DNA from: an uncultured Leptospirales bacterium
GTDB lineage: Bacteria; Spirochaetota; UBA4802; UBA5550
Direction of reading: 5' to 3'
Length of the DNA: 62,785 nucleotides
Assembly (NCBI GenBank): GCA_964529965.1
Contig: CAZHAD010000004.1
Coordinates: 10,358-73,142, forward strand
Shown here: positions 31,811-62,494 of the stretch, one piece after another
Position numbering within the stretch: the stretch's first letter is position 1
How the letters are laid out: every line of letters starts with the position of its first letter
The notes under the pieces: generated by a model
Told to the model about the DNA's origin: nothing
Database searches by the model: none
Seen by the model: only the letters and a program-made list of their open reading frames with translations
Translations under genes and position numbers: made by a program

Positions 31811-31812
31811 AT

Positions 31813-33959: not shown

Positions 33960-33963
33960 CAAC

Positions 33964-39727: not shown

Positions 39728-39733
39728 GCGGCC

Positions 39734-40306: not shown

Positions 40307-40319
40307 AGGGGAGAAGACA

Positions 40320-41518: not shown

Positions 41519-41542
41519 CTGGTAAAGAAAAGGACTGCCGAT

Positions 41543-43585: not shown

Positions 43586-43619
43586 AGACGAATGTCATAA
43601 TATCTTTGGGAGTGTCTAC

Positions 43620-44132: not shown

Positions 44133-44229
44133 GGTGCGCGGTACATGCGGCAAAGGCGGTCGCGGATGACCGCGGTCCCGGTCCGGTGCGGGGCGCACGT
44201 AAACGGAATCATTCGACGCGAGGCATGAC

Positions 44230-44613
44230 ATGGGAAAACTGAAGATAGAGGATCTCCAGAAAATCAAGGAGAGGGTGAAGGGGACCGTCACCGTCAGGGA
44301 GGGGTCTCACCGTGTGAAGATAGTCGTGCACATGGGGACCTGCGGGATTGCGGCAGGGGCGCGTACGGTGCTGAACACGTTCCTGAATGAAATCAATGCG
44401 CGCGGCGTGACGGACGTGATATTGACGACCTCCGGCTGCGCGGGATTGTGCAGCAGGGAGCCGATGGCTACCATCGAGTTGAAGGGGACTGCGCCGGTAA
44501 AATATATCGACCTTGATGAGGAAAAAACAAAAAAGATTTTTTCGGACCATGTCATGGATGAAAAGCCGGTCATAGAATTCGCGCTCGTTCAGGGGAGCGA
44601 AACAACGTATTAA
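44230..44613 (+). CDS. Thioredoxin-like [2Fe-2S] ferredoxin
   Basis: Contains the 'VVHMGTCGIAAGA' and 'TSGCAGLCSREPM' cysteine pairs. Confidence 0.8.
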   Translation: MGKLKIEDLQKIKERVKGTVTVREGSHRVKIVVHMGTCGIAAGARTVLNTFLNEINARGVTDVILTTSGCAGLCSREPMATIELKGTAPVKYIDLDEEKTKKIFSDHVMDEKPVIEFALVQGSETTY

Positions 44614-44624
44614 GGAATTTTTCC

Positions 44625-46421: not shown

Positions 46422-46476
46422 CGGGGGAAATACCGATATACGGGATCACATATTTTGATACCAGGTTCAGGTGGCC

Positions 46477-49227
46477 ATGAGTTCTGACAATACTATCAAC
46501 ATAAACGGCAATAAATACTCCTTCAGCGAGGGACAAACCGTCCTTGAAGTGGCGAGGGAAAACGGGATATACATACCCACGCTCTGCCATCTCGAGGGGA
46601 CCACCAACACCGGCGCCTGCAGGGTCTGCGTGGTCGAGGTGGAGGGGGTGCGCAACCTGGTCGCGTCCTGCGCCATGCCCGCCTCCAGGAATATGGTCGT
46701 ATTTACCGATTCCCCGCGGGTCATCGAGTCGCGGCGCTTTGTCATTTCGCTGCTCATGATTTCGGGCAATCACAACTGCGCAGCACGGGGGACCACGAAC
46801 GGCGACTGGGCCGATTTTCAGATGGACGTGCGCGACTACGACGGGAGCGATGAAATCTGCGACGCCTACGGAAGCTGCGTGCTTCAGGAGCTCGCCTACC
46901 GGTATCAGGTGCACGAGAGGATTACCGCCCTCCGCCTTAAGAACCTTTCGCCCGTCTACCGGGTAGAGGACATCAATCCCTTCATCATACGCGATTTTTC
47001 GCGCTGCATCGTATGCGGCAGGTGCGTCAAGGCATGCACCGAGGTCCAGGTGAACAACGCCATCTCGTACGGATACCGCGGCGTTCATGCGAAAATTGTA
47101 ACAAGGGGCGATAGCGCCCTCCTCCATTCGGACTGCGTCTTCTGCGGGGAGTGCATCCAGGTGTGCCCCGTCGGCGCGCTCGTGGAGAAGGACGTCAGGT
47201 TTAACACGCGTTACTGGGGTTTGAAGCGGGTCGAGAGCACGTGTGCAGGCTGCAGCGTCGGGTGTGCGGTCAACATATACGTGAAGGACGACGCCGTAAT
47301 GCGTATTGACGGGAATACCGGCGGCCCGGTCAATCACGGCAGCCTGTGTGTCAAGGGAAGGTACGGGTTCGGGTACCTGCGCAGTCCTGAGAGGCTCTCG
47401 GCGCCCCTGATGAAAAAAAACGGGGGCCGGGAGGCGGTGGAATGGGAAGCCGCGCTCGGCGCGACCGCGAAAAAGCTGAAGGACATAATAAAAGCACACG
47501 GCGCGGACTCGGTCGCGGGCATTGTTTCGGCCCGGTATCCGAATGAAGACGCGTATGTGATGCAGAAATTTTTCCGTACGGTCATTGGGACCAACAACAT
47601 CGACTGCAGCCCGCGGTTGTACGATGCTCCCGCGGTGTACGCCCTTCACGAATCCATGGGCCTTTCCGCAATGACGAATTCCATCGGCGAAATCGATAAA
47701 AGCGACCTCATCCTGGTCGTCGGATCGGATGCCACTGAGAGCCATGCGGTGGCCTCGAGCATGATCAAGAGGGCGGCCTCCCTTCATGAAAAGGGACTCA
47801 TTGTCGTCGACCCGCGGATAACGTCTCTCGCAAGGCACGCAAAGTATCATCTGCGCCCGCATCCCGGCACCGACATCGCCTGGATCTACGGCTTCATGCG
47901 GGTCATGCTCGATGAGCATCTGATCGATGAAACGAAATTGAGCGGGTCATTTGAAAATTTTGAAGAACTGAAAAAAGCGGCCGGGAGGTATACCCCGGAA
48001 TACGTCGAGGGAGCGACCGGCATACCGGGGGCCCTCCTCGCCGAGGCCGCACGAGCTTATGCCCGTGCGGGCGCTGCGTCGATTTTTTACGCGTCCGGTG
48101 TTACCCAGCAGAAGAACGGGACTGAGAATGTACGGGCGCTCGCGGACCTGGCCCTGCTCTGCGGCAACCTTGGAATCGAGGGAGGGGGGATTAACCCTCT
48201 GAGGGGCGAGGGCAACGCGCAGGGAGTTTGCGATATGGGATGCCTTCCCGACCTGCTGCCCGGATATCAGGATGTGGCAGAGGCGGGCGCACGCGAGCGC
48301 TTTAGCCGCCATTGGGGCGTTGAGGTGCCCGCGAAGCCCGGGAAAACTTTGATGAAAATGCTCCGGGCTGTCGAAAAAGGGGGCGTGAGGGCGTTCGTCG
48401 TCATGGGCGTCGATCTCCTGGCCAGTCTGCCCGATTATACGCGTATGGAAAAAGCGCTCAGGAACCTCGATCTTCTTGTCGTTTTAGATATTATTAAAAA
48501 CGAAACGGCTGGGATCGCGGACATGACTCTTCCTGTTGCCTCGATCATGGAGCGGGAAGGGACCATTACCAATACCGAACGGAGGGTCCAGCGCGTAAGA
48601 CAGGCCCTCAAGCCTGTCGGCCAATCCCGGGAATCATGGAAGGTGTTTGTCGACCTCGCCCGATTAATGGGCAGGCCGATGGAATACGGCTCCTCGGAGC
48701 AGATATTCAATGAGATGGCACAGGTTGTGCCGGGTTATTCAGGATTGAGTTACGGAAGGCTTGAAAAGGAGTGGGGCGTACAATGGGGATTCGAATCGCA
48801 GGGCGAAAGAAAAATCTATTCGCCTCAAGCCGGTAAGGGCGGCGCGCCGCGCTTTCATGTCGTTGATTTCAAGCTTCCTGACAAGGGAGATATGCCGTTT
48901 ACGCTGGCGGCGGGGAAAATTATGAAAGAATATTTTCATTATACGGGCGATCTTGACGCGCTGAAGAGGGGAGTTGCCCTGATGAATCCCGCGGACGCTC
49001 TGGACATCGGCCTTGAGGATTCGGGAACCGTAACAATCACCTCTCCCGCCGGCTCGATAATGTTTCAGGTGGAGCTTGAGACCGATATTCCCCAGGGCAT
49101 GCTTTTCATACCCTTTCATCCCTCAAAGGAAAAAGTAGGCGCGCTCATATCATCGGAGATAGAGTCTGTTTCAGGCATTCCCGCATATAAATCGGCCGGG
49201 GTGAAAATCGAAGCTCATAATATTTAA
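46477..49227 (+). CDS. NuoG/FdhA-like subunit: [2Fe-2S] + [4Fe-4S] domains fused to a Mo/W-bisPGD (formate dehydrogenase-like) domain that lacks the Sec/Cys ligand
   Basis: Contains 'TLCHLEG...GACRVCVVEV', 'CIVCGRCVKAC', 'CVFCGECIQVCPVGA' and 'CAGCSVGCAVNIY'. The active-site segment reads 'GTNNIDCSPRL-YD-APAVYALHESMGLSAMTNS', where Fdhs have 'ARL-(U/C)H-'. 'NPLRGEGNAQG' and a C-terminal beta-barrel domain are present. The start is ATG 46477 or GTG 46471. Confidence 0.82.
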   Translation: MSSDNTININGNKYSFSEGQTVLEVARENGIYIPTLCHLEGTTNTGACRVCVVEVEGVRNLVASCAMPASRNMVVFTDSPRVIESRRFVISLLMISGNHNCAARGTTNGDWADFQMDVRDYDGSDEICDAYGSCVLQELAYRYQVHERITALRLKNLSPVYRVEDINPFIIRDFSRCIVCGRCVKACTEVQVNNAISYGYRGVHAKIVTRGDSALLHSDCVFCGECIQVCPVGALVEKDVRFNTRYWGLKRVESTCAGCSVGCAVNIYVKDDAVMRIDGNTGGPVNHGSLCVKGRYGFGYLRSPERLSAPLMKKNGGREAVEWEAALGATAKKLKDIIKAHGADSVAGIVSARYPNEDAYVMQKFFRTVIGTNNIDCSPRLYDAPAVYALHESMGLSAMTNSIGEIDKSDLILVVGSDATESHAVASSMIKRAASLHEKGLIVVDPRITSLARHAKYHLRPHPGTDIAWIYGFMRVMLDEHLIDETKLSGSFENFEELKKAAGRYTPEYVEGATGIPGALLAEAARAYARAGAASIFYASGVTQQKNGTENVRALADLALLCGNLGIEGGGINPLRGEGNAQGVCDMGCLPDLLPGYQDVAEAGARERFSRHWGVEVPAKPGKTLMKMLRAVEKGGVRAFVVMGVDLLASLPDYTRMEKALRNLDLLVVLDIIKNETAGIADMTLPVASIMEREGTITNTERRVQRVRQALKPVGQSRESWKVFVDLARLMGRPMEYGSSEQIFNEMAQVVPGYSGLSYGRLEKEWGVQWGFESQGERKIYSPQAGKGGAPRFHVVDFKLPDKGDMPFTLAAGKIMKEYFHYTGDLDALKRGVALMNPADALDIGLEDSGTVTITSPAGSIMFQVELETDIPQGMLFIPFHPSKEKVGALISSEIESVSGIPAYKSAGVKIEAHNI

Positions 49228-49388: not shown

Positions 49389-49826
49389 ATGAAAATAACC
49401 GCCAAGGACATTTTACAACAAAAAGGAGCTAACCTGATAAGCATCAAAAAGGGAGGCTCTCTTCTGGATGCGGTCAAAACGATGCGCTCACACAAAATCG
49501 GCGCGGTTCTGGTGCTCGGGAAGGAAGAGGGCATCGAGGGTATCATTACCGAGCGTGACGTATTAAGCGCGGTCGAAAAATATAACGGAAACGTCGAGCG
49601 CGTCTCAGTAGATGAAATGATGACGAAAAATATTATCGTGGCCGTTCCAGATGACGACATCGAGTATTTGATGGGCATAATGTCGAAAAATAGAATACGG
49701 CATATCCCGATTGTAAGCCAGAACAAAATAGCCGGGCTGATATCAATCAGGGACCTGGTCGCCACGAGAATAGAAGAATGCGAACTGGAAAACCGTCTCC
49801 TTTCAGATTATATGACGAGCGGATGA
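49389..49826 (+). CDS. CBS-pair domain protein
   Basis: Two CBS repeats are present: 'HKIGAVLVLGKEEGIEGIITERDV' and 'NRIRHIPIVSQNKIAGLISIRDL'. Confidence 0.85.
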   Translation: MKITAKDILQQKGANLISIKKGGSLLDAVKTMRSHKIGAVLVLGKEEGIEGIITERDVLSAVEKYNGNVERVSVDEMMTKNIIVAVPDDDIEYLMGIMSKNRIRHIPIVSQNKIAGLISIRDLVATRIEECELENRLLSDYMTSG

Positions 49827-49848: not shown

Positions 49849-51099
49849 CTATTCGGCGATACGGAAGTCCATGTACTGCGGCAGCTCAACGGTGAACCGC
49901 GCCCATGAACCCTGCTTTGATTCGGCAAAGATCCTTCCGCCGTGCAATTGAACGATTTTCCATGACAGGTACAAGCCGATCCCGCTTCCTTTTCGCTCGA
50001 TCAAAGTCTTGGTTTCAAGCCTGGAAAATTTTTTGAACAACCGGCTCTTTTCAGTTTCAGAGAATCCCGGACCCTCGTTCCACACGGACAGGGAGAACAT
50101 CTTGAAGAGCTTTTTTATGGTAATGACGAGCCTTCCCTTTTTGTTGCCGTATTTAATCGCGTTGTTCAAGAGGTTCAGCACCACGATTTTTATCAGGTCC
50201 GGATCGCAGTAAACGGGAAAGATCGTGCCCCGGAAGTCCCGCTCGAGCTTCATGTCCCTTTCCTCGACCTGCTGCATGATCAGTTCTATCGAGGCCTCGA
50301 TAATATCATCGATGAAATCCACCAGTTGGCGTTTCAATACCAGGGCGTCGCCCTCGAAGCGTGAAAGGTTCAGATACTGCGCGCTCATGGCATCCAGGTA
50401 TTCGGCCTTTTTTATGACCCGTCGAACGACGTCACGCTGCTTCTCGTCGATCTGGCCGTAGTACCCGTCTGACATTGTGCGCATCAGGGTTATGATCGAG
50501 GTAATGGGGCTTTTCAGTTCATGGGCGACGAAGCCCAGCATTTCCTTATAGGCCTGGTAATGTTTTTCAATCTGGTCGCTCTGATATGCTTTTTCCAGGG
50601 TATATCTCAGCAGCGAAGCGATTTTTTCCAGCAGTTGTCCATGGTGCTCCAAATAAGGGTTGCTCCCCCGGCAGCTGCAGGAGAGCGTCCCGATTACGCC
50701 AATGTCGGATACGACGGGCACGATTACGCAGGCGGTGATGCCCTCGGCGGTAAGCAGGGACAGGAGCTCGGAGTCAGAGGCACCGGACGGTTGATCGTTG
50801 CAGCCATATATGACGGGAGAGCGGGTATCGACGGCCTGCTGGATAAAACTTCCGGGGACATCGGCCGCGTATCCGGCGGGCAAATGGAGCGGATCATAAT
50901 CGGATTTTACGATTCGTATGATCAGCCGCCGGCCGTTTTCTTCAAGGAGACCTATATCCAACCTGTCGCAAGGGATGATTTCAAGGATGTCGGAGAAAAT
51001 ATGACTTATAATCTCCTCCAATCCGTCCCCTTTCAGGATATTGTGGCCGATTTTTTCCAGGATTTCCTGTTCCGCGGTTGTTATGTTCGAGTGTTTCAA
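49849..51099 (-). CDS. Cytoplasmic GAF-sensor histidine kinase
   Basis: An N-terminal GAF-like region precedes the H-box 'GFVAHELKSPITS', N-box 'NLLNNAIKYGN' and G-boxes 'NEGPGF' and 'GSGIGLYL'. No TM segment was seen. Confidence 0.85.
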   Translation of the reverse strand: MKHSNITTAEQEILEKIGHNILKGDGLEEIISHIFSDILEIIPCDRLDIGLLEENGRRLIIRIVKSDYDPLHLPAGYAADVPGSFIQQAVDTRSPVIYGCNDQPSGASDSELLSLLTAEGITACVIVPVVSDIGVIGTLSCSCRGSNPYLEHHGQLLEKIASLLRYTLEKAYQSDQIEKHYQAYKEMLGFVAHELKSPITSIITLMRTMSDGYYGQIDEKQRDVVRRVIKKAEYLDAMSAQYLNLSRFEGDALVLKRQLVDFIDDIIEASIELIMQQVEERDMKLERDFRGTIFPVYCDPDLIKIVVLNLLNNAIKYGNKKGRLVITIKKLFKMFSLSVWNEGPGFSETEKSRLFKKFSRLETKTLIERKGSGIGLYLSWKIVQLHGGRIFAESKQGSWARFTVELPQYMDFRIAE

Positions 51100-51283: not shown

Positions 51284-51679
51284 ATGACTGCTGAGAAAAC
51301 CATAACATTGCGTGAAGTGGTTGAAATATTGGCAGCAGAAGTCCATTATACGTCCAGCCGGCAGCTTGACACCGAGATACAAACCGCCCGTGCCAGTGAC
51401 CTCATGAGCGACATACTGTTTGACGATACGGTGCCGGACATTTTACTCACCAGATTGTGCAACGCACAGGTGGTGCGCACCGCGTCGGTGTTCGGTATAA
51501 AAGCGGTTGTCATGGTGAGGAGCCATGATATAAACATGAAAATTGCCGATCTTGCCAAGGAGGAAAATATAGTCCTCATTTCAACACAAGGGACCCTCTT
51601 CGCCTCATGCGGCAAATTATACGCACGCGGAGTCCGCGGAGTTCTCGAAATACCTAAAATGAAGATGGAAGACTTTTAA
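51284..51679 (+). CDS. DRTGG domain protein (second copy)
   Basis: 'ARASDLMSDILF...ILLTRLCNAQVVRTA...AVVMV' parallels the 26617..26958 protein. Confidence 0.72.
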   Translation: MTAEKTITLREVVEILAAEVHYTSSRQLDTEIQTARASDLMSDILFDDTVPDILLTRLCNAQVVRTASVFGIKAVVMVRSHDINMKIADLAKEENIVLISTQGTLFASCGKLYARGVRGVLEIPKMKMEDF

Positions 51680-51693
51680 TTGAGAATGCTTGG

Positions 51694-51724
51694 CGCATCC
51701 CCGAAGCAGAGCCTAGGGGATGCG
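51694..51724. other. Stem-loop CGCATCCCC-N13-GGGGATGCG after the DRTGG gene
   Basis: A 9-bp perfect inverted repeat. No U-tract occurs on either strand, so a terminator function is uncertain. Confidence 0.35.
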
Positions 51725-51972
51725 AGCAAAAGGGGAGCTTCAACCTTGCTCATCACCCGCTGGAATGGATCTTACTGCTTCCGGATTGACATATTCGTTT
51801 GCTTCAGTAAAAAAATGGTTGCAATATACCTCCTTCGTGTAATACTCTATTAGTGAATCCACGATCAGACTATTGTGAGCGTTGTTTGTACATAACGGCC
51901 TGTCGGGTGTCGGTTATCATTAAATCCGAGCCCGGTGATTATGCCGGACATTAAATATTTTAAGCATTTACC

Positions 51973-52000
51973 TTGACATTTTGCGTGTGTGAGGTATCAT
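51973..52000 (+). promoter_or_regulatory. Candidate sigma70-type promoter for the hdr-fdh module (TTGACA-16 nt-TATCAT)
   Basis: A consensus -35 TTGACA lies at 51973-51978 and a -10 TATCAT at 51995-52000. It sits 171 nt upstream of ATG 52171, and AT-rich palindromes follow (ATCAAT..ATTGAT, TTGATATA..TATATCAA). Confidence 0.35.
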
Positions 52001-52170
52001 GGGATCAATATTCGTAATCAATACAAAATTGTAATTGATATAAAAATTTGATGCCTATATCAAAAAACACAAAATAACACATTGCGATGGAGCGTATTTA
52101 ATAAGCGAGCAACGGGATATCGTGTATTGAAATTGCGCAACGAAAATTTGATATTTCCGGAAATGCGGAC

Positions 52171-53976
52171 ATGATTTATTCTCTGGGATTATATATATCG
52201 CTTGCAATATTCGCAATCGGTTTGTCATATAAGGTATTGAGTTGGTTCAGGCTCAGGATCGGGGCCGCATCGAAAGACATATCAGCCATAAAAAGATTTA
52301 CTGCCGCCGTAAAGGGCACGCTTGCCGTCGTTTTCAGCCTGAAAATTGTTACCCTCATGAAGGTCTTCTTCCTGGACGTGATTTTGCAAAGAAGGATCAT
52401 AAGGACCGATTTCCTCAGGTGGCTGATGCACACGTTCATTTATGCGGGCTTCATTCTCCTCCTGCTCATGCACGCCCTTCAGGCCGTCATCACCTCGAAG
52501 CTCTTTCCGGATTACAATTCAACCCTCAATCCCTACATGTTTCTCCGCGACCTGTTCGGGATGATGGTGATCGCCGGGCTCATCATCGCCGTGTATCGCC
52601 GGTTTATCGCAAAAGTCCCGCGGCTTGCCACCGGGGCGATGGACGTGTACCTGATCGCGGCGGTGGGCGTGATCATCCTGACCGGCATTTTCCTCGAGGG
52701 GGCCAAAATCACCTCGTATGCGCGCTACCGTGAGATGGTCACCGATTACGGCGCTGCGGAAAACGCGGCCGAGTCAAAGGCGCTTGAATCCTATTGGGTG
52801 GAGCATTTTCACGTCGTCTCCCCGGACAAAAGCCTTGCGTTCGACGGGGCCACCCTGAAGCTGGGGAAGGAGGTGAGCGGGAGGACCTGCGTGTCGTGCC
52901 ACTCGGATCCGCGGTGGGCCTTTTCCGGGTTCACCGTCGCCGCGGCGATCAGGCCCGTCGCCTCCGGCATGGACGCGGCCGGGGTGCCGCACCTGCTTTT
53001 TTATCTTCATTATTTTGCGTGCCTTTTCGCGCTCGCCTATCTGCCGTTCAGCAAATCGTTCCACATCATCGCCACGCCCATAAGCCTTCTGGCGAACTCG
53101 GTCATGAGGGAGGGCGCGTCGCATCCGGCGAACGTCGCCACGCGGCAGGTCATGGAGCTTGACGCGTGCACGCATTGCGGCACCTGCAGCCTCCGCTGCT
53201 CCGCCCTTGCCGCGTTCGGCATAAGCGGCAACTCCGCAATCCTTCCATCGGAAAAATTGCAGAGCATCAGGGCACTGGCCCGGGGAAAACGCATGAGCGA
53301 TTGCCAGCTCGCTCTGCTCAGGGAGGGGGTTTACCTATGCACGAACTGCGACCGGTGCACCGTGGCGTGCCCGTCAGGCATCAACCTGAGGGAGCTCTGG
53401 TTCCAGGTGCGCGAGGAGCTCATTCAAAGGGGGGATCCGATGCCGATCGTGTTGTCGCCTCTTTCCCATTTCCGCGGATTGAAGCAGGGAACGCTTGGCG
53501 CGGAATATACGCGGCCCCTGGATGAGGCCAGGGTCAGATTGACATCAGGGATTGGAAGGATACAAAAAGGCGGCGCCGTGCCTGTTTCAATAATAGACAA
53601 GGAATTCGCCTCCGCCTTGGCCCTGCGGGAGGACTCCGGCACCTACTCATACTGTTTCAAGTGCTCCACCTGCACGACGTCGTGTCCGGTTGTCGCCAAT
53701 TACGACAATCCGATGGAGACACTCGGATTGCTGCCGCATCAGATAATACACTCTGTTGCGCTGGGGCTCAAGGATATGGCCGTCGGCTCCAGGATGCTGT
53801 GGGATTGCCTCACGTGCTATAAATGCGAGGAAAATTGCCCTCAGGGCGTGCGCATCGTCGAGGTTTTATACCGGCTTAAAAATTTGGCGATAATTACTAA
53901 TCGCAGGAGTTTTCAATGTTCGGATACCAACGGCGATAAACGAGAAGAGATAAAAAAGTACACCATTCAGGTATAA
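52171..53976 (+). CDS. Membrane cytochrome b (NarI/HdrE-like) fused to two HdrC-like 2x[4Fe-4S] domains
   Basis: The N-terminal roughly 300 aa is hydrophobic with conserved His ('WLMHTF', 'LLMHAL', 'FYLHYF', 'PFSKSFHII'; compare 'PFSKWAHL' in the QmoC-like protein). 'CTHCGTCSLRC', 'CTNCDRCTVACPSG', 'CFKCSTCTTSCPV' and 'CLTCYKCEENCPQG' follow. Confidence 0.8.
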   Translation: MIYSLGLYISLAIFAIGLSYKVLSWFRLRIGAASKDISAIKRFTAAVKGTLAVVFSLKIVTLMKVFFLDVILQRRIIRTDFLRWLMHTFIYAGFILLLLMHALQAVITSKLFPDYNSTLNPYMFLRDLFGMMVIAGLIIAVYRRFIAKVPRLATGAMDVYLIAAVGVIILTGIFLEGAKITSYARYREMVTDYGAAENAAESKALESYWVEHFHVVSPDKSLAFDGATLKLGKEVSGRTCVSCHSDPRWAFSGFTVAAAIRPVASGMDAAGVPHLLFYLHYFACLFALAYLPFSKSFHIIATPISLLANSVMREGASHPANVATRQVMELDACTHCGTCSLRCSALAAFGISGNSAILPSEKLQSIRALARGKRMSDCQLALLREGVYLCTNCDRCTVACPSGINLRELWFQVREELIQRGDPMPIVLSPLSHFRGLKQGTLGAEYTRPLDEARVRLTSGIGRIQKGGAVPVSIIDKEFASALALREDSGTYSYCFKCSTCTTSCPVVANYDNPMETLGLLPHQIIHSVALGLKDMAVGSRMLWDCLTCYKCEENCPQGVRIVEVLYRLKNLAIITNRRSFQCSDTNGDKREEIKKYTIQV

Positions 53977-54145
53977 TAATGGAACCGCCGATGGACGTCG
54001 ATGAACGCAGATTAAATTTGGATGAAATTACCTATTGTATTAATTACAAATGTATTATTGCACTCGGATTCCTTCGTAGAGGCAGGATTATTCCCGTTTT
54101 TCGCGGATATGGGCGTACCATATTCAACAAAGGTAATTGTTTGTT

Positions 54146-54163
54146 ATCGGCGTGAATCGGCGG
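54146..54163 (+). repeat. 18-nt motif ATCGGCGTGAATCGGCGG, copy 1 (internal direct repeat ATCGGCG-TGA-ATCGGCG)
   Basis: This is an exact match to 59441-59458. It lies 48 nt upstream of the hdrB ATG. Confidence 0.8.
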
Positions 54164-54210
54164 TTAAAAAAAATATTTGATTGCAGCTTCGCTGCGTTGT
54201 GGATATTAAT

Positions 54211-55092
54211 ATGAGATATGCCTTATTCCTTGGATGCACGATTCCGGCCAGACTGAAGGAGTATGAGGTTTCAGCCAGGGCGGTATTGAAGAAGCTGAAC
54301 ATTGAATTGGTGGATATCAAGGATTTCAATTGCTGCGGGTATCCATTGCGCAATTTTGATTTCAAGTCGTATCTGCTTTCATCCGCAAGAAATCTGGCGC
54401 TGGCACAAAGAAAGAATCTGGACGTTGCCGTCTTGTGCCAATGCTGTTACGGCAGCCTGAAGAAGGCGGATTCCTTAATGAAGGAAGGCCCGTCCCTCCG
54501 CGATGAAATAAACGGATATCTCAAGAAGGAGAAGCTGGAATACACGGGAGGGGTTGAGATAAAGCACCTTCTCACCATACTACATGACGATTACGGGATT
54601 GAGGCTCTCAGGAAGAAGATAGAAAGGCCTTTCAAGGATTTGAAGATCGCGGCGCACTACGGCTGCCATGCACTGCGGCCCAGCAGGATCGTCCGTCTGG
54701 ATGATCCATACGACCCGAAAATTTTTGATCGGCTCGTGGAGGCGACCGGCTCCCAAAGCATTTACTGGGCCAGCAGGCTGGAATGCTGCGGCGCCCCGCT
54801 TCTGGGAGTCAATGATGATCTTTCTTTTGATATAATGCGGAAGAAGCTGAAAGACAGCAGTGAGGGGGGCGCCGATTTTATCTGCACCGCCTGCCCGTAC
54901 TGCCAGATCCAGTTCGATACGGTACAGGCGATGATCACCGGTGAAGAGAAGGGCGGGAGCACCATCCCCTCGATTCTCTACACCCAGCTTCTCGGCATGA
55001 GCATGGGCATCGACAACAAGGCACTCCTGCTCGATACGAACAGGATATCCGTGCGCGAATCCGAGGGTTCGCTGGTTTTGCAGAGCGCGTGA
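54211..55092 (+). CDS. hdrB: Heterodisulfide reductase subunit B-like protein (two CCG domains)
   Basis: Contains 'LFLGCTIP...FNCCGYP' and 'HYGCHALRP...LECCGAPL...CTACPYCQ'. ATG 54211 is preferred over the track's TTG 54181. Confidence 0.85.
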
Positions 55093-55144
55093 GCGACGGC
55101 AAAGGATTAATTATTTTTTAAACATTTATATTGAGGACCGTACC

Positions 55145-58100
55145 ATGACAAAAAAGATCGGATCAGTGATGGTGGTTGGCGGAGGCATCTCCGGGATGCA
55201 GGCCGCCCTGGACTTGGCCGATTCCGGTTATTATGTCTATCTCGTTGAAAGGTCTTCGTCCATCGGCGGCATGATGTCGCAGCTGGACAAGACCTTTCCG
55301 ACCAACGACTGTTCCATGTGAATACTTTCACCGAAACTGGTCGAGGTCGGCCGGCATTTAAACATCGAGCTGATGACGCTTACGGAGATCAACAGCATCG
55401 CGGGAGAGGGAGGCGATTTTGAAGTGCGCGCCACCCGCCATCCGCGGTATGTCTCCCTGGACAAATGCATCGCCTGCGGCGTGTGCGCCGAGAAGTGCCC
55501 CAAAAAGGTGCCGAATGAATACGATGCGGAGCTGGGCAACAGAAAAGCGATCTATGTCAAGTACCCGCAGGCGGTTCCTCTCAAATATGCCATCGATGAG
55601 AAGAATTGCATCTATTTTATAAAGGGGAAGTGCAGGGCGTGTGAGAAATTGTGCCCTGCGGGAGCCGTCAATTTTGAAGACAAGGCGACGGACGTTACGC
55701 TGCATGTGGGGGCCGTGGTGATCGCACCCGGCTCTGAGGCGTATGACGTCGCATCAAACGACGTGTACGGGTACGCCAGATCCGGAAATATCGTCACGAG
55801 CCTTGAATTTGAAAGAATACTTTCATCGACGGGCCCGTTCGAGGGGCACCTCGTAAGGCCGTCCGATCACAAGGAGCCGGGAAAGATCGCATGGATCCAG
55901 TGCGTGGGTTCACGCGACATGCATGCGGGATCGCATGGATACTGTTCGTCCGTATGCTGCACCTATGCAATAAAGGAAGCGATCATCGCCAAGGAGCATT
56001 CGAACGGCGATCTGGATGCCGCGATATTCTACATCGACATGAGGACTCATGGGAAGGATTTTGAGAAGTATTATAACAAAGCCAGGAACGAGATGGGGGT
56101 GCGGTTTATAAGATCGAGGATCACGAGCATTCCCGAATCGCCCGATACCGGGGACCTCGTGATACAATATGTAGACGAGCGCGGACGCAAGCGGGAAGAA
56201 TGCTTTGACATGGCGGTGCTCTCGGTCGGGCTGAGCGCGCCCGGTCAAGCCTCGGGCCTTGGTGACCGGTTTGGGATAAAGCTCGACCGGTACGGCTTCC
56301 CCGTAACCCGGAGCTTCAGGCCGGTCGAAACATCAAAGCCCGGGATCTTCGTATGCGGGGCCTTCCAGGGACCCAAGGATATACCCCAGTCGGTCATTGA
56401 GTCGAGCGCGTGCGCGGCGGCGGTGGGAAGCCTTCTGGGCGAGTCCCGCGGGAGCCTGGCCCGCACGAAGGAAGCGCCGGTGCAAAAAGACGTCATCGGC
56501 GAGCGGCCTCAAATCGGGGTGTTTGTGTGCAAATGCGGGACCAATATCGCCGGCGTTATTGATACATCAAAGCTGGCCGAGAACGCGCGGGCGCTGCCCG
56601 ACGTCGTGTATGTGGAGGAAAATCTGTTCAGCTGCTCCCAGGATACTCAGGAGAAGATCACTCAGATCATAAAAGAAAAGAAACTCAACCGGGTCGTAGT
56701 GGCCGCCTGCACTCCTCGGACGCACGAGGAGCTCTTTCAGGAGACCGTGGTCAATGCGGGCATAAATAAGTATCTTTTTGAGATGGCCAATATCCGGAAT
56801 CAGTGCTCCTGGGTGCACCGGGGAAGCCCCGAGCTTGCCCTGGAGAAGGCGATTGACCAACTACGAATGGCGGTGGGAAAAGTGCGGCTCGCCGAGCCCT
56901 TTTCCGAGTTTGAGATTGGGATCAACCAATCCGCCCTGATCGTGGGGGGCGGCATATCGGGGCTTGCAGCCGCCCGCAATCTGTCCGAGCAGGGGTATCA
57001 TGTCCATCTCATTGAAAAGAGCACTATGCTGGGGGGCCAGGCCAGGAATATTTACCGGAGCTGGATGATGGAGGACGTGCGGGAAGAGCTGTCACGGCTC
57101 ATCGAGGACGTTCAATCCAGCCGGAACGTTGACGTATATCTTGATGCTGAATTGAAGAACGTGGACGGCTTTGTCGGCAATTTCAGATCGACTATTACGG
57201 CCGGAAGAACCGAAAAGGTGCTTGATCACGGGGTGGCGATAATCGCGACCGGGGCATCGGAGCTCAAGCCCGACGGGTATCTATACGGCGAGGACGACCG
57301 CGTCATAACCGGGCTTGAGCTGGACGCCAAGTTAATGAATGATGACCACGATTCCTTCGTGAAGGGGATCCAGAGGGTTGTGTTCGTGCAATGCGTCGGA
57401 TCACGGATTGAGGAACGGCCCTACTGCTCCAAGGTCTGCTGCACCCATTCAATCAGGAATGCCGTTACATTGAAGAAGATGAACCCCGCAATGGATATTT
57501 TTATTATATACAGGGATATCCGCTCGTATGGATTGAGGGAAGACCTGTATCGCGAAGCACGTTCGATGGGCGTCGTATTCGTTCAATATGAATTCGAAAA
57601 GGGCTTAGAAGTTGAAAGGTCGGACAAAAGCCTCCGCGTGCGGTTCATGGATTCGGTTCTTCATCACGAGATAGAGATTTCCCCGGAGCTGCTGGTCCTC
57701 GCCTCGGCCATTGTTCCGCCTGAAGACAACGCGGTCGCGAGGATGTTCAAGGTCCCGTTGAACGAGGATGGTTTTTTTGTCGAGGCGCATGTAAAGCTTC
57801 GGCCCATAGATTTTTCCACCGAAGGCGTGTTTGTCTGCGGCCTTGCGCACAGCCCGAAGCCCATAGATGAATCGATCGCACACGGGCTAGGCGCCGCTTC
57901 ACGTGCGGTGACGCTGCTGTCAAAAGAGAGAATGCTCGGCAATGCCCTGGTTGCGGAGATAAACCAGGAGACATGCGCGGGATGCCAGGGCTGCATGGGG
58001 GTGTGCTCGTTCGAGGCCATATCATTTTTGCCGGATCTGCGCGTGTGTCAGATCAACGAGGCCCTGTGCAAGGGATGCGGCGCGTGCGCCGCGACGTGCA

Positions 58101-58174
58101 CGTCGGGAAGCATAAAGCTCAGGGGCTTTACCTCAAAGCAGATATTCAAGCAGATTGAGGCGGTTGTTTTTTAG
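55145..58174 (+). CDS. hdrA: Tandem double HdrA flavoprotein, selenocysteine-containing (1009 aa)
   Basis: ATG 55145 is in frame with track ORF 55373..58174. Reading TGA 55319-55321 as Sec gives '[21 protein letters not shown]...[22 protein letters not shown]', the HdrA motif. The first half has an inserted ferredoxin domain ('[12 protein letters not shown]', '[13 protein letters not shown]'). The second half restarts with '[15 protein letters not shown]', has '[16 protein letters not shown]', and ends with '[11 protein letters not shown]' and '[11 protein letters not shown]'. Confidence 0.9.
55331..55350 (+). promoter_or_regulatory. Putative SECIS hairpin for hdrA UGA
   Basis: Nine nt after UGA: CCGA[AA]CU-GGUCG-AG[G]UCGG, giving 4+2 bp around a small internal loop with an apical GGUCG. 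Confidence 0.5.
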
Positions 58175-58197
58175 TTTTATAGATGAGGAGTTTCAGA

Positions 58198-58623
58198 ATG
58201 TCTCCAGAAGGATTTAAACCCAAGATCATTGCATTTTTATGCAACTGGTGCGCCTATGCCGGCGCGGACCTGGCCGGCATCAGCCGATTGCAGTACTCTC
58301 CCAGCGTTCGCGTGATAAGGGTCATGTGCTCGGCAACGGTTTCGCCGCACCATATTTTGAAGTCCTTTCAAAAGGGGGTCGACGGCGTTTTTGTGGGAGG
58401 GTGACACATCGGCGAATGCCATTACCTGTACGGTAATTACATGACCAATAAAAGGATCGCCTTCATGAAGGAGCTTCTTGAATTTTTCGGGCTGGAGCCT
58501 GAGCGCCTGCGTCTGGAATGGGTTTCCGCGTCAGAGGGCCAGAAATTTGCCCGGGTTATCAATGAGTTTGCCGATCAGATCGGGGAGTTAGGAGAATCAC
58601 CTTTGAACAACAAGGTTCTTTAG
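58198..58623 (+). CDS. mvhD: MvhD family protein, selenocysteine-containing (141 aa)
   Basis: Track ORFs 58183..58404 and 58441..58623 are in one frame. Reading TGA 58402-58404 as Sec gives 'GVFVGG-U-HIGECHY', aligned to 'VLICGCHPGDCHY' of the Cys paralogue at 33525. 'IIAFLCNWCAYAGADLAG' is also present. ATG 58198 lies 8 nt after GAGGAG. Confidence 0.88.
58421..58437 (+). promoter_or_regulatory. Putative SECIS hairpin for mvhD UGA
   Basis: Sixteen nt after UGA: AUUACC-UGUAC-GGUAAU, a perfect 6-bp stem. Confidence 0.45.
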
Positions 58624-58655
58624 GCTCAATAATTACGTTATGGCAGAGTTTTACC

Positions 58656-59438
58656 ATGAGTGAAAAAATTAAAGGATATATCGCCGGCCTTTTCAAGCAG
58701 GGAAAAATCGAGGCCTTTTTGGGAGAGAGAGAGGAAAACGGCCAGATAGTTCCCCACCTGTTCACCGGTCCGGAAGAGATCGAACACCTTTACTTCGGAT
58801 CAAAACGCTACCCGCTGAACAAGGTGCTCGCGCAGCTTTGTAAAAGATATCCGGAGGCTACAATCGGCGTCATGGTTCGGGGATGCGACGAGCGCGGATT
58901 AAACGAGCTGTATAAATGGAATCAGCTTGATCCGGAGAAGGTTGTCGCCGCAGGCATCGCATGTTCGAAGGAACAGGCGGAATACTGTGAATGCTCCAAG
59001 CCCTATCCCGAAGTCCTTATCGATGGAGAGCAAACGCCGGCAGTAGGGAATGGAACAGTCAAAATGATAGAGTCCATGGGGATTCCGGAGAGGCTGAAAT
59101 ACTGGATGGCTGAATTTTCCCGATGCATCAAGTGTTACGGCTGCCGCGATATCTGCCCGATGTGCTTTTGCAACGAATGCAGCCTCGAAGAGGCGGAATT
59201 CATCGGAAGGGGAAAAATACCGCCTGAGATTCCCGTCTTTCATCTTTCACGGGCCGTGCACATGGCGGGGCGATGCATCGACTGCGGCCTTTGCGAGGAG
59301 GCCTGCCCGTCGATAATACCCCTCAGGAGGCTTTATAAAAAAGTGAACGACATCATCCAGAACCATTTTTCTTACAGGCCGGGCTACGATGATGAGAAAT
59401 CCCCCTTGAATATGCTGGGGCAAAGGCCTGAAGAATAG
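58656..59438 (+). CDS. Iron-sulfur electron-transfer protein (AsrA / sulfhydrogenase-beta / FrhB-like 4Fe-4S dicluster region)
   Basis: Contains the 'CIKCYGCRDICPMCFCNEC' and 'CIDCGLCEEACPS' motifs. It lies between mvhD and fdhA. The family assignment is only approximate. Confidence 0.65.
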   Translation: MSEKIKGYIAGLFKQGKIEAFLGEREENGQIVPHLFTGPEEIEHLYFGSKRYPLNKVLAQLCKRYPEATIGVMVRGCDERGLNELYKWNQLDPEKVVAAGIACSKEQAEYCECSKPYPEVLIDGEQTPAVGNGTVKMIESMGIPERLKYWMAEFSRCIKCYGCRDICPMCFCNECSLEEAEFIGRGKIPPEIPVFHLSRAVHMAGRCIDCGLCEEACPSIIPLRRLYKKVNDIIQNHFSYRPGYDDEKSPLNMLGQRPEE

Positions 59439-59440
59439 AA

Positions 59441-59458
59441 ATCGGCGTGAATCGGCGG
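59441..59458 (+). repeat. 18-nt motif ATCGGCGTGAATCGGCGG, copy 2
   Basis: This is an exact match to 54146-54163. It starts 2 nt after the upstream stop codon and ends 62 nt upstream of the fdhA ATG. Confidence 0.8.
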
Positions 59459-59520
59459 CTATCATTATTCTTTTCAGGATTGATAACTGAATAGTTACTA
59501 TAATTTTATTGGAGCAGTTA

Positions 59521-61557
59521 ATGGATTACAAGAGCGTATCGACGATTTGTCCTTATTGCGGCTGCGGCTGCGGATTGGCCCTTCAGGTGCTTGACGGGTC
59601 AATTACCGGCGTCCTGCCGAGCAAATCGAATCCGGTCAATGAAGGAAAGCTCTGCATCAAGGGGTGGAACGCGCATGAGTTTATCGCCAGTTCCGAAAGG
59701 ATCACGAAACCCCTCGTGCGGAAAAACGGCGGCCTGGAGGAGGTCGGGTGGGACGAGGCGCTTGAGCGCGCCTCATCCGGGCTGATGGAAATAAAGAAAA
59801 AGCACGGACCGGACAGCATCGCGTTTATGAGCTCTGCAAAGTGCACCAACGAGGAGAATTATCTCTTGCAGAAGTTCGCACGCGCCGCCGTGGGCACCAA
59901 TAACGTCGACCACTGCGCCCGGCTTTGACACTCTTCCACCGTGGCAGGTCTTGCCGCGTCGTTCGGAAGCGGGGCGATGACCAACTCCATCGCCGACATT
60001 GAAAAATCGAGGTGCATATTCATTATCGGTTCCAACACCACCGAGGCGCATCCGCTTGTCGCATATCGTGTTATGAAGGCACACAAGAACGGCGCCGCGC
60101 TCGTCGTCGCCGATCCCCGGAGGATCCATATTTCCACATTTTCCGACATCCACGTCCGTCAAAAACTCGGGACCGATGTCGCCCTCATCAACGGCATCAT
60201 GCATGTCATTATAAAAGAAGGATGGGAGGACAGGGAATTTATCACGAATCGGACCGAGGGTTTTGACGCCCTGAGCACGATGGTGGAGCGGTTTACCCCT
60301 GAGAGGACCGCAGAGATCACCGGCGTCAGCTCTGAAGATATACGAAAGATCGCGGAATTGTACGCGAAATCCGAAGTCTCTGCAATAATATATGCGATGG
60401 GCATAACCCAGCACACCACCGGTGTGGATAACGTGAAATCGCTGGCGAATCTGTCGATGCTGTGCGGACACATCGGCAAGGAGGGGGGAGGAGTCAATCC
60501 ACTCCGGGGGCAGAACAACGTGCAGGGTGCGTGCGATATGGGAGGGCTACCCGACGTATATCCCGGATACCAGCGGGTCAACGACGAGAACGCCGCGAAA
60601 AAGTTCGAACAGGCATGGAACGCGACACTTTCCCGCAAGCCGGGGCTGACCATCACGGATATATTCACCGCAATTGATGAAGGGAAGGTCAGGGCCCTGT
60701 ATGTAATGGCTGAAAATCCCATGCTCAGCGATCCCGATATCCGCCATGTTGAAAAGGCGCTTGGATCATTGGACTTGTTGATCGTTCAGGATATCTTCAT
60801 GACCGAAACGGCAAGGTTGGCTGATGTGGTCCTTCCCGGGGTTACATTCGCCGAGAAGGACGGGGTCTTTACCAACACGGAAAGAAAGGCCCAGAGGATC
60901 AGAAAAGCCATTGATCCGATCGGTGATTCAGTGCCCGATTGGGAGATCATCCGGAATTTATCGAAGAAGACCGGTTATCCGATGGATTATAAGCATCCGT
61001 CCGAGATTCAGGAAGAAATATCAAGGCTGACCCCCAGCTACGGCGGCATCACCTATGACCGATTGGAAGGCGACGGATTGCAATGGCCGTGTCCGGATAA
61101 AAGCCACCCCGGCACGGTGTTCTTGCACAAGGACAAATTTTCGCGCGGGCGGGGCCTTTTTTCTGCCATTGATTATTTCCCGCCTGCGGAGCTGCCTGAC
61201 GATGAATACCCGCTGGCGCTGACCACGGGCCGTATGTATTTTCACTACCACACCGGAACGCTGTCAAGAAAATCGCCGTCGCTTAATCTTGAAACAGAAA
61301 GCGGCTATGCGGAGATAAGCCGGGCCGATGCGCAGCAGCTCGGCATCAAGGACGGTGAAAAGGTAAAAGTCGTCTCCCGCAGGGGAGAGATAGAGACCAC
61401 GGCGGTTGTCACCGACAAGGTTGAGGCGGGATTAATATTCATTCCCTTCCATTTTTTTGAAGGTGCGGCCAATGTTCTCACGAATACGGCGTTCGATCCG
61501 GTTGCCAAAATTCCGGAATTAAAGGTCTGTGCGGTAAGGGTGGCGAAAGCCTCTTAG
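59521..61557 (+). CDS. fdhA: Cytoplasmic formate dehydrogenase catalytic subunit, selenocysteine-containing (678 aa)
   Basis: Track ORFs 59509..59928 and 59941..61557 are in one frame. Reading TGA 59926-59928 as Sec gives '[32 protein letters not shown]'. 'CPYCGCGCG' and 'NPLRGQNNVQGACDMG' are present. There is no Tat signal. Confidence 0.92.
59941..59957 (+). promoter_or_regulatory. Putative SECIS hairpin for fdhA UGA
   Basis: Twelve nt after UGA: GUGGCA-GGUCU-UGCCGC (6 bp including one G-U). The geometry and loop match the 10231-10259 element. Confidence 0.6.
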
Positions 61558-61570
61558 AAGGCCGCCAGGA

Positions 61571-62494
61571 TCAGTAGAAAAAATCCCTCATAAAGAGATG
61601 CCTTAATATGTCCTTCCTGCTGACAATGCCGGACAATATGTTATTGCCCTTTTGCACGACGGGGATCTGTTTTACTCCACGATCGCAAATGAGCATGACG
61701 ACGTGGCTGACATGCGAGTCTTCGTTGATATACAGCACGTCCCGCGTCATGATCTCGTTAAGAAAACGCTCGCTCGTCCATCCTTCGAGCACGTCGGTTT
61801 CTGTCAGGAACCCCACCAGCCGCATTCCGGAATTGACCACCGGAAGTCCGGAAATACCCAGTTTCAGGAACATCTTAATGGCGTCTTTTGCGGTCTGGTC
61901 CTCCCGGAGGTAAAAGACATCTCGGGTCATTATGCTTTCGACGGAGACCTCCAGGGCGGGGTCGGTTTTCAGATCGACCTGCATCTCGCATTCTTCGCAG
62001 ATCTGGCGGGATAGATAGTGGAATCCCACCTTCGAATAGATGTGCTTGGCTTTCATATTGTAGGGCTCGACGCAGAGCCAGATGTTTTTATACCCGATAT
62101 CCTGGGAGATTTTCTTCACGAGCCGGGTGAGCTGGATCCCGATGCCGGCATTTTGATATCGCGGGGCCACGGCGAGAATGAAGTCGGAGCGGCATCCGTC
62201 AATATCGAAGATCGCCCCATGGCAGATCGCCTCATGATCGAACGAGATGCCGACAATATTAAATCCGTTATCAAGCATGGATTTAACCCATGCCTGCAGG
62301 CGTTCATCCTCGGCGGGAGGCAGTCCCTGATACGATTCCTTCGGTTCGAAATCCCGGTACATTTTCAGGATTTTCGCATAATCGTCTTTCATTACTTTTC
62401 TGAACAGGATCGGACGTCTTTTCCGATCTATATAAGGATGCGGGAGGCAGCTGGTCTCCGTGTTGATTAGGATTGTCCTTACCTTGTCGTCCAC
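61571..62494 (-). CDS. GNAT-family N-acetyltransferase fused to a C-terminal CBS pair
   Basis: Contains 'VAPRYQNAGIGIQLTRLV' (acetyl-CoA motif A) and the CBS repeats 'IMTRDVFYL...ISGLPVVNSGMRLVGFLTETDV' and 'IMTRDVLYI...IPVVQKGNNILSGIVSRKDI'. Confidence 0.8.
   Translation of the reverse strand: MDDKVRTILINTETSCLPHPYIDRKRRPILFRKVMKDDYAKILKMYRDFEPKESYQGLPPAEDERLQAWVKSMLDNGFNIVGISFDHEAICHGAIFDIDGCRSDFILAVAPRYQNAGIGIQLTRLVKKISQDIGYKNIWLCVEPYNMKAKHIYSKVGFHYLSRQICEECEMQVDLKTDPALEVSVESIMTRDVFYLREDQTAKDAIKMFLKLGISGLPVVNSGMRLVGFLTETDVLEGWTSERFLNEIMTRDVLYINEDSHVSHVVMLICDRGVKQIPVVQKGNNILSGIVSRKDILRHLFMRDFFY

Follow-up and report, generated by a model that had tools for sequence, protein, structure and literature searches.

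Within a 62,785-nucleotide (nt) stretch of DNA from an uncultured Leptospirales bacterium (assembly GCA_964529965.1, contig CAZHAD010000004.1; hereafter the window), six same-strand reading frames between 52171 and 61557, here called g1 to g6, specify a NarI-type cytochrome fused to iron-sulfur (FeS) and HdrC domains, HdrB, a double HdrA, MvhD, a shortened FdhB-like protein (FdhB') and a cytoplasmic, selenocysteine (Sec)-containing FdhA. Our preferred reading, to which we assign a probability of roughly 55%, is that g1 to g6 together encode one membrane-anchored bacterial counterpart of the bifurcating FdhAB-MvhD-HdrABC complex of methanogens. A preliminary description of this DNA had proposed the same architecture and had seen in it the union of a membrane-Hdr design with the soluble bifurcating HdrABC-MvhD-Fdh design, and at the level of architecture both proposals stand. 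Comparison with related loci further shows that g1, HdrB and the double HdrA constitute a widespread conserved core, and that this core, rather than the link to formate, is the unit to be explained.

Listing and translation of open reading frames (ORFs), Pfam scans and searches against the sequences of solved structures recovered all six of the co-directional genes previously described, at the same coordinates, and upheld every domain call made for them. Three of the frames carry a single in-frame TGA. The features of the operon are as follows.

51973..52000, + strand: sigma-70-like promoter, TTGACA-16 nt-TATCAT, by consensus match, about 170 nt 5' of g1
52171..53976, + strand: g1, 601 amino acids (aa), NarI-type cytochrome followed by a 2x[4Fe-4S] domain and an HdrC-like 2x[4Fe-4S] domain (Pfam, PDB search, AlphaFold2)
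52429..53064, + strand: codons of the predicted haem-b ligand histidines H87 (52429-52431), H101 (52471-52473), H280 (53008-53010) and H298 (53062-53064)
52888..52902, + strand: CXXCH haem-c attachment motif C240-V-S-C243-H244, in the predicted periplasmic loop formed by the insertion between transmembrane helices IV and V
54211..55092, + strand: g2, HdrB with two CCG (non-cubane cluster) domains (PF02754 in two stretches, 6.9e-25)
55145..58174, + strand: g3, fused double HdrA, 1009 aa with the TGA read through (8rvu_a, 1.9e-178)
55319-55321, + strand: predicted Sec codon TGA of g3, codon 59, motif DCSM-U-ILSPK (stop/Cys alternation in relatives)
58183..58623, + strand: g4, MvhD (PF02662, 2.6e-55; 5odc_D, 5e-51)
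58402-58404, + strand: predicted Sec codon TGA of g4, codon 74, motif GG-U-HIGECH (stop/Cys alternation in relatives)
58656..59438, + strand: g5, shortened FdhB-like FeS subunit, 260 aa (matches to 9t1s_M, 7bkb_E and 8rvu_E)
59521..61557, + strand: g6, cytoplasmic Sec-FdhA, 678 aa (PF00384, PF01568, PF04879)
59926-59928, + strand: predicted Sec codon TGA of g6, motif ARL-U-HSS (SECIS, and stop codon in relatives)
59923-59981, + strand: predicted Sec insertion sequence (SECIS) of g6 (Rfam SECIS_3, 45.8 bits, E 4.9e-8, under the gathering score of 63)

One feature that sets this operon apart from its soluble counterparts is g1. Residues 79-193 of its product match the Pfam family Nitrate_red_gam (PF02665; 26.8 bits, gathering score 22.9), Fer4 families follow downstream, and two cysteine octets (C333-C400 and C495-C556) define two 2x[4Fe-4S] domains, corresponding to four cubane clusters. 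The C-terminal of these domains (residues 474-575) matches the solved HdrC chain 8rvu_c with an E value of 5e-16; the two HdrC-like domains earlier assigned to this protein are therefore both present, and the second of them is HdrC. The cytochrome domain occupies residues 1-311 and has five transmembrane (TM) helices. Hydropathy, positive-inside charge bias and an AlphaFold2 (AF2) model built on 71 homologues concur on the NarI/EMO topology, in which TM I (residues 2-27), starting from an N-terminus on the outer side, leads into a lysine- and arginine-rich cytoplasmic stretch with short helices, followed by TM II (81-111), TM III (121-146), TM IV (156-181), a helical insertion of 90 residues (182-270) and TM V (272-311), beyond which lie the FeS domains, predicted to be cytoplasmic. 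The membrane part was modelled with predicted local distance difference test (pLDDT) values of 85-95.

A prediction of TM helices and haem-ligand histidines had been proposed for 52171..53976, and both were found. H87 and H101 are located in TM II and H280 and H298, 18 residues apart, in TM V; all four are invariant across the 71 homologues and each is retained in 82-90 of 92 distant cluster representatives. As judged from these alignments, the set matches the four-histidine pattern of NarI-type cytochromes b, including NarI and EMO. For comparison, haem bP of the EMO from S. aciditrophicus (SaEMO) is held by His87 and His251, and its distal haem (bD1) by His233 (preprint 10.64898/2026.08.18.745454).

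The label of cytochrome b originally given to g1 is borne out by these histidines but is incomplete, since it overlooked a conserved CXXCH motif and an accompanying methionine. The CXXCH is invariant in both alignments of g1 homologues, and among the 92 representatives, which share 30-55% identity with g1, C240 is present in 88, C243 in 91, H244 in 89 and the candidate sixth ligand M189 in 89, such that motif and methionine are kept in approximately 96% of the set, down to 30% identity. The topology of the loop follows from that of NarI and EMO, with the N-terminus out and the C-terminus in, together with the charge bias; because the FeS domains are taken as cytoplasmic, the loop that follows TM IV has to lie in the periplasm. 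On this pattern of conservation it is likely that the loop carries a covalently bound His/Met haem c, and g1 is probably a cytochrome b/c rather than a plain cytochrome b. A profile match of g1 to the haem subunit of flavocytochrome c was non-significant (E 0.2). With the conserved CXXCH placed on the periplasmic side by the predicted topology, g1 may as plausibly have a periplasmic cytochrome c for a partner as a quinone.

The CXXCH-bearing NarI-type domain also occurs in other architectures, nearly all of which retain the CXXCH. In a few relatives of 711-716 aa (P0129, P0132 and P0215), the CXXCH and two CCG domains are combined in a single chain of the EMO/HdrF-like kind, and about 25 representatives are short forms of 300-440 aa (375-392 aa in the examples read). 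Four short forms of 375-383 aa (P0158, P0162, P0167 and P0180) terminate in a conserved C-x-H-G-G-x-C-H-x-x-C-P.

When g1 was searched against the PDB, both as a single sequence and as a 71-sequence profile, only its FeS and HdrC parts were matched, and the membrane domain found no significant match. A Foldseek search of the g1 model against the PDB placed M. smegmatis EtfD (9ojn) first (E 1.4e-4, 533 aligned columns), with HdrC chains next; the kinship of g1 with EtfD is thus visible by fold only, not by sequence search. EtfD, SaEMO and an AlphaFold model of HdrDE share a layout of NarI-type haem domain, two cubanes and two CCG/non-cubane clusters (PMC13083937; preprint 10.64898/2026.08.18.745454), and the D. 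autotrophicum protein "HdrF" has been described with the same layout (PMC2702500). The likeness of g1 and g2 to EtfD, EMO, Methanosarcina HdrDE and HdrF extends to the five-TM NarI-type haem domain, 2x[4Fe-4S] and the two CCG domains. In contrast to EMO, EtfD and HdrDE, the CCG part of the window's module is a separate HdrB, g1 itself has no CCG domain, and a second dicluster domain, HdrC, has been added, so that g1 has four cubane clusters, two more than EtfD, EMO or HdrD. Relative to EMO and EtfD, it also has the 90-residue insertion with CXXCH and methionine after TM IV, all four NarI histidines, and HdrA as its partner instead of ETF. Enzymes of the EMO, EtfD and HdrDE kind contain haems b only, and have either ETF or no partner. 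EtfD and EMO only transfer electrons, and their distal non-cubane cluster is variable or altered (PMC13083937; preprint 10.64898/2026.08.18.745454). By domain content and fold, g1 and g2 are a split relative of the EtfD/EMO, HdrDE and HdrF modules with an added HdrC domain.

The remaining genes encode the parts of an Fdh-Hdr enzyme. The two-CCG-domain HdrB assigned to g2 was recovered, with 5odc_B as its top PDB match (1e-60, residues 1-281). The alignment retains the full set of ten cysteines that hold the two non-cubane clusters, which favours a catalytic disulfide site, although it is not proof of one. The 1009-aa double HdrA proposed for g3 is likewise borne out, in that two complementary halves align to 8rvu_a. 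Residues 8-378 correspond to HdrA 154-517, a stretch that includes the CSMC/U motif together with the flavin and inserted ferredoxin domains; the N-terminal domain of HdrA (8-167) is matched by residues 451-610, and HdrA 469-652, the C-terminal part with its ferredoxin domain, by residues 823-1007. All HdrA domains, namely the thioredoxin-reductase fold and the N-terminal, inserted and C-terminal FeS domains, are therefore present but spread over two fused halves. The assignment of g4 as MvhD stands on its PF02662 match.

The product of g5, earlier called simply an FeS protein, does have an FeS part, but the generic label has to be replaced by that of a truncated FdhB. It matches the FdhB chains 9t1s_M (8.4e-33), 7bkb_E (2.3e-27) and 8rvu_E (2e-26), and has 260 aa compared with 380-414 aa in methanogen FdhB. 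Only residues 30-104 and 139-250 align, covering FdhB residues ~54-130 and ~274-381; the middle (~130-274), the F420/FAD-side part, is missing, and no FrhB_FdhB Pfam match was obtained for g5 at E<=0.01. We infer that g5 would act as a pure electron wire that lacks an F420 site. For g6 the top PDB match is 9t1s_L, the FdhA of a methanogen Fdh-Hdr complex (5e-243), with 7bkb_D at 8.5e-202. Its N-terminus, MDYKSVSTICPYCG, has no twin-arginine (Tat) signal, and together with the in-frame TGA at 59926 this agrees with the signal-less Sec-FdhA that had been described. Five of the six proteins (HdrA, HdrB, MvhD, FdhB and FdhA) thus have chains of methanogen Fdh/Mvh-Hdr complexes as their top matches among solved structures.

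Only FdhA had been recognised as a selenoprotein in the preliminary description; alignment of TGA and Cys codons in relatives raises the number to three. In tblastn alignments of related loci, the codon aligned with the TGA of HdrA is a stop codon in 54 and Cys in 11, that of MvhD a stop in 16 and Cys in 6, and that of FdhA a stop in 6 and Cys in 1. The Rfam scan returned no SECIS for HdrA or MvhD; both have plain minimum-free-energy hairpins only, which are weak evidence alone, that of g3 being a stem-loop 18 nt 3' of the TGA. The Sec status of HdrA and MvhD is instead assigned because their TGA aligns with TGA or Cys codons in relatives, and by this comparative test the operon encodes three selenoproteins, HdrA, MvhD and FdhA. 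In some methanogens the same three proteins are selenoproteins at the same positions.

The near-consensus promoter noted earlier upstream of g1 agrees with the sigma-70 consensus at 11 of 12 positions and is the top-scoring site within 51600-61800. The two longer intergenic spacers have the lengths previously given, 234 nt (53977-54210) and 82 nt (59439-59520), and the gap between g3 and g4 is 8 nt. A terminator scan found no more sites than in shuffled sequence and none inside the 234-nt or 82-nt spacer, which leaves co-transcription neither proved nor disproved. A contig from JGI metagenome 3300063131 (L083), of the same population and the only close relative, has 99.3% nucleotide identity throughout, the identical six genes and identical upstream neighbours. 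Because this independent contig has all six genes, and because the g1-g2-g3 order recurs elsewhere, the arrangement is not due to chance. The g1 of L083 (3420-5126) is shorter by ~99 nt than 52171-53976 of the window, encoding 568 aa instead of 601, and misses approximately residues 130-162, from the end of TM III to the start of TM IV; the shortening may reflect strain variation, a defective allele or an error of assembly.

Homologues of g1 are numerous, with 2372 at E<=1e-10 among 8000 candidates scored. Those with taxonomic labels derive mostly from Desulfobacterales, Desulfatiglans and "Deltaproteobacteria", with Spirochaetota and one Anaerolineales metagenome-assembled genome (MAG; L020) in addition. 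The nearest labelled relatives are a 'Spirochaetota' single-amplified genome (SAG) at 59% and Desulfobacterales MAGs at up to 58%. The gene-order search proposed earlier was carried out on 85 loci with a g1 homologue, in most of which the g1-g2-g3 order recurs: g2 is next in 79 and g3 next in 62, and many of the others end on short contigs.

What follows the core is far less constant. Twenty-four loci have a complete g3 with 3 kb or more of sequence behind it; nothing further follows in 11 of them, MvhD-FdhB'-FdhA in 5 (one of them the window's own population), MvhD with a different FrhB-like protein in 5, and MvhD alone in 3. The MvhD-FdhB'-FdhA order behind g3 is found in L002, L005, L007, L054 and L083. 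The g3-g4-g5-g6 order recurs in independent lineages at 41-63% identity, and the fdh genes are placed upstream instead in L040 and L043. Within a group that includes the Eth-SRB1 MAG (L032, L033, L036, L038 at 16322-17287, L041 and L044), the gene behind MvhD encodes a 321-aa FrhB/FdhB-like protein with 25-27% identity to g5, and FdhA is missing. Genes of the NuoE/NuoF type interrupt the HdrA region of nine further loci, which look like an NADH-input variant of the core. In these loci (L006/L082 at 12695-18740, and L003, L009, L014, L015, L018, L039 and L042) a short N-terminal HdrA piece is separated by the NuoE-like and NuoF-like genes from the remaining HdrA, whose own N-terminus is of the NuoG-like 2Fe-2S/4Fe-4S kind.

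The clade of g1 homologues closest to the window has a methylene-tetrahydrofolate reductase (MTHFR) gene immediately 5' of g1 (64-75% identity; L081 and L084, also L001 and L085). Two loci of the closest labelled clade, from a 'Spirochaetota' MAG and SAG (L084, 9080-19241; L085, 8905-19343) have the order MTHFR, g1, HdrB, a 1485-1496-aa HdrA-GltD fusion whose GltD-like part is an NAD(P)H domain, MvhD, a MetV-like PF12225 protein and MTHFR, and by gene content appear to be a membrane-anchored version of the Moorella-type methylene-tetrahydrofolate (methylene-THF) reductase cluster. The partners of the core among relatives are therefore Fdh, in a minority, NuoEF-like proteins, MetF/MetV, an FrhB-like protein, or none. 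Since Fdh, MetF/MetV and NuoEF-type proteins are redox enzymes of the Wood-Ljungdahl pathway, this assortment fits a general role for the core, that of a bifurcating hub linked to the membrane.

The subunit set FdhA, FdhB, MvhD, HdrA, HdrB and HdrC is common to the window and to the methanogen FdhAB-MvhD-HdrABC complexes (7bkb from Methanospirillum hungatei; 9t1s/9sfi). The methanogen HdrC is a small soluble protein of ~185 aa with two [4Fe-4S] clusters, whereas that of the window is the C-terminus of a 601-aa, five-TM protein with an extra two-cluster domain; the window's HdrA is a fused double copy, its FdhB does not have the middle F420/FAD-side part, and its gene set, unlike the methanogen system, has no Fmd/Fwd partner. 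Because the nearest labelled relatives are bacterial (Spirochaetota and Desulfobacterales), CoM-S-S-CoB is an unlikely substrate.

If g1 to g6 form a single enzyme, formate would be oxidised at the Sec/molybdopterin site of FdhA, and electrons would travel by way of the FeS-only FdhB' and MvhD to the double HdrA and its flavin, as in 7bkb. There the flavin would bifurcate them, with the low-potential electron reducing ferredoxin and the high-potential electron entering the HdrC domain of g1. From HdrC two routes can be envisaged: via the two non-cubane clusters of HdrB to a disulfide or trisulfide such as DsrC, should the host be a sulfate reducer, or through the four cubanes, haems bP and bD and the probable periplasmic haem c to menaquinone, periplasmic cytochromes c or both. 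On this model, g1 and g2 would serve as a transmembrane wire similar to HdrDE, DsrMK and EMO, and g3 to g6 as an Fdh-Hdr bifurcase. The sequences show the identity of the subunits, the conservation of the cofactor ligands and that of the core with its exchangeable partners; we infer the six-protein assembly, its direction of flow, its high-potential acceptor, the covalent haem c and any coupling to the proton-motive force.

Several observations weigh against the single formate-bifurcating enzyme. The core stands without MvhD or Fdh in 11 of the 24 fully covered relatives; it can hence do without formate, and may be only loosely linked to Fdh. The cytoplasmic domains of g1 were modelled with only moderate confidence (pLDDT 50-80), in a model free of cofactors. 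Formate bifurcation to menaquinone would be strongly exergonic and, if not coupled to the proton-motive force, a waste of energy; the acceptor is therefore expected to be a disulfide or a cytochrome c, or else the reaction to be energy-coupled. DsrC, quinone and haem c maturation are assumptions for this host; dsr, ccm and menaquinone genes are not among the window genes shown.

The same complex could instead run in reverse, a possibility that we consider unlikely. As a confurcating CO2 reductase, it would join at the HdrA flavin an electron from reduced ferredoxin and one derived from the membrane, drawn from menaquinol or a periplasmic cytochrome c via haems c, bD and bP and possibly driven by the proton-motive force, and deliver formate to the reductive Wood-Ljungdahl pathway or to interspecies formate transfer. 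Metal-dependent Fdh enzymes and Hdr-type bifurcation are both reversible, the closest g1 relatives lie in MetF/MetV clusters of the Wood-Ljungdahl pathway, and the window's further complement of a periplasmic Tat/Sec FdhA, Rnf and an NAD-type Fdh suits formate cycling. By our estimate from textbook potentials, ferredoxin at approximately -500 mV and menaquinol at -74 mV average approximately -290 mV, near the CO2/formate couple at micromolar formate. SaEMO offers a precedent for a NarI-type module that pushes electrons uphill by means of the proton-motive force (preprint 10.64898/2026.08.18.745454). However, reduced ferredoxin alone could reduce CO2, so that a weaker co-donor would gain little except at very low ferredoxin reduction, and the characterised Fdh-MvhD-Hdr complexes all run from formate to ferredoxin. 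The direction is not set by anything in the sequence.

Alternatively, and in our view rather improbably, g1 and g2 would work in the manner of DsrMK and HdrDE, carrying quinol or cytochrome c electrons inward to the HdrB disulfide and making proton-motive force, while Fdh, MvhD and HdrA feed the same disulfide as they reduce ferredoxin and the haems receive nothing from the flavin. The domain logic is indeed identical to that of HdrDE, DsrMK and EMO, the catalytic cysteine set of HdrB is complete, the four bis-His ligands are typical of transmembrane NarI wires, and the 11 relatives with no donor module would be accommodated. Yet HdrDE, DsrMK and EMO need only two cubanes between haem and CCG, whereas here a second, true HdrC domain has been kept and a double HdrA is invariably the neighbour, which points to obligatory flavin coupling. 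That the operon encodes two co-transcribed but separate enzymes, a membrane-bound g1-g2-g3 and a soluble MvhD-FdhB'-FdhA serving another HdrA-like protein (e.g. 28804-33525) or another acceptor, is very improbable, for although Fdh is the partner in only 5 of 24 relatives, fdh can lie upstream, and the window contains a second HdrA/MvhD/MvhGA cluster, that cluster has its own MvhD, MvhD binds HdrA in every solved complex and here directly follows g3, and the g3-g4-g5-g6 order recurs across lineages.

In Moorella and Sporomusa, HdrC is a small soluble protein. The MetVF-HdrCBA-MvhD enzymes of the Moorella/Sporomusa type have a fused double HdrA, MvhD, HdrB and HdrC in common with the window, but carry MetVF where the window has Fdh, and it is in the window that the membrane partner is fused to HdrC. 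Double HdrAs with fused, complementary halves are on record both from ANME archaea and from MetFV-HdrABC-MvhD of Moorella (PMC9012536). The complex of this type in S. ovata is membrane-associated; work on S. ovata and Thermacetogenium phaeum postulates an Hdr link from MTHFR to the quinone pool whose membrane partner was not found.

In the membrane complexes QmoABC, DsrMK(JOP) and TmcABCD of sulfate reducers, FeS or CCG modules of the HdrC/HdrD-like kind are combined with a NarI-type cytochrome b, and Tmc and DsrJ contribute periplasmic haem c; QmoC consists of an N-terminal HdrC-like FeS part and a C-terminal cytochrome b, and qmo adjoins aprBA. Judged by their descriptions rather than by sequence comparison, all three stand apart from the window. 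The order of parts in QmoC is the reverse of that in g1, and Qmo has no HdrB; Dsr and Tmc have no HdrA, and their haem c resides on separate subunits, whereas the candidate haem c of the window lies in a loop of the cytochrome b. Qmo includes HdrA-like flavoproteins (PMC3333476). A Qmo identity was dropped given the reversed domain order of g1 and the presence of HdrB; no apr genes were seen in the scanned ORFs. A class II benzoyl-CoA reductase (Bam) cluster, considered since BamE/F resemble a double HdrA and MvhD, was also dropped, because Pfam scans of neighbouring ORFs contained no aldehyde-oxidoreductase (BamB-type) family and Fdh subunits follow MvhD.

Gene clusters like that of the window are already on record. 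Loci with hdrA-mvhD-fdhB-fdhA (V and VI) were drawn for D. autotrophicum in 2009 (PMC2702500), and 'HdrBCA-MvhD-FdhBA' was named in 2017 for D. toluolica Tol2 (TOL2_RS06275-06300) and the marine Chloroflexi DscP3 (PMC5736913). Compared by description only, these clusters equal that of the window in gene content and, as far as described, in order; the papers on them make no mention of a transmembrane or haem domain on HdrC and report no biochemistry. Our literature search found no membrane-fused HdrC described as working with HdrA, and an earlier mention in reviews beyond those covered is possible; the closest idea on record concerns HotSeep-1, with an HdrA complex that includes a haem-c/CCG protein (PMC10553843). 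The novelty first claimed for the operon therefore holds in so far as no biochemically characterised complex was found in the literature, and is reduced by the genome papers of 2009 and 2017, by the fused double HdrAs already known from Moorella and ANME and by the solved structures of the g1-g2 module type (EtfD 9ojn; SaEMO).

The surrounding ~60 kb is rich in energy-metabolism genes and includes, with g6, three different types of Fdh. A periplasmic Sec-FdhA with a Tat signal (MPLTRRDFLTLSGMTAAG), an in-frame TGA and the motif ARI-U-HSA is encoded on the - strand at 7839-10811. The second Hdr-type cluster (28804-36392, + strand) comprises HdrA-like genes of 606 and 615 aa flanking a 399-aa FeS protein (28804-33525), then a Cys-type MvhD (33522-33959) and MvhG-like and MvhA-like [NiFe] hydrogenase genes. 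A further group of genes, on the + strand at 37415-49227, runs from rnfC, D, G, E and A through a 680-aa protein (41543-43585), in which RnfB-type FeS domains are joined to a GltD/NfnB-like flavoprotein, to NuoE-like and NuoF-like genes and a 918-aa NAD-type FdhA; this cluster may be an Rnf-linked or bifurcating formate dehydrogenase. The operon itself is flanked by genes for a CBS-pair protein (49389-49826, + strand), a GAF-histidine kinase (49849-51099, - strand) and a GNAT-CBS protein (61571-62494, - strand). A PAS-histidine kinase gene lies directly upstream of the MTHFR-g1 genes in the relatives L081, L084 and L085, a hint of sensor-kinase control.

These findings bear on the route by which Hdr-type bifurcating modules of the Wood-Ljungdahl pathway, whether of Fdh or of methylene-THF reductase, gain access to the membrane in syntrophs, in sulfate reducers and in acetogens that contain cytochromes. 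The g1 family supplies a concrete, widespread and testable protein for this role, a membrane partner fused to HdrC in which the ligands of two haems b, and probably those of one haem c, are conserved. It also extends the recently solved EtfD/EMO/HdrDE type of module to a version that would dock a bifurcating flavoprotein. We tentatively suggest that g1, HdrB and the double HdrA could represent a previously unrecognised class of transmembrane flavin-based bifurcating enzyme, in which the high-potential branch would run via four cubanes, two haems b and a periplasmic haem c, and bifurcation or confurcation would be coupled directly to transmembrane charge transfer, with proton-motive force either made or used, and to the periplasmic cytochrome c or menaquinone pool. 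If so, the core would be the missing membrane link of Hdr-type Fdh and methylene-THF reductases in cytochrome-bearing Wood-Ljungdahl organisms, and its membrane-linked HdrC may show how Hdr-type bifurcating enzymes connect to the membrane.

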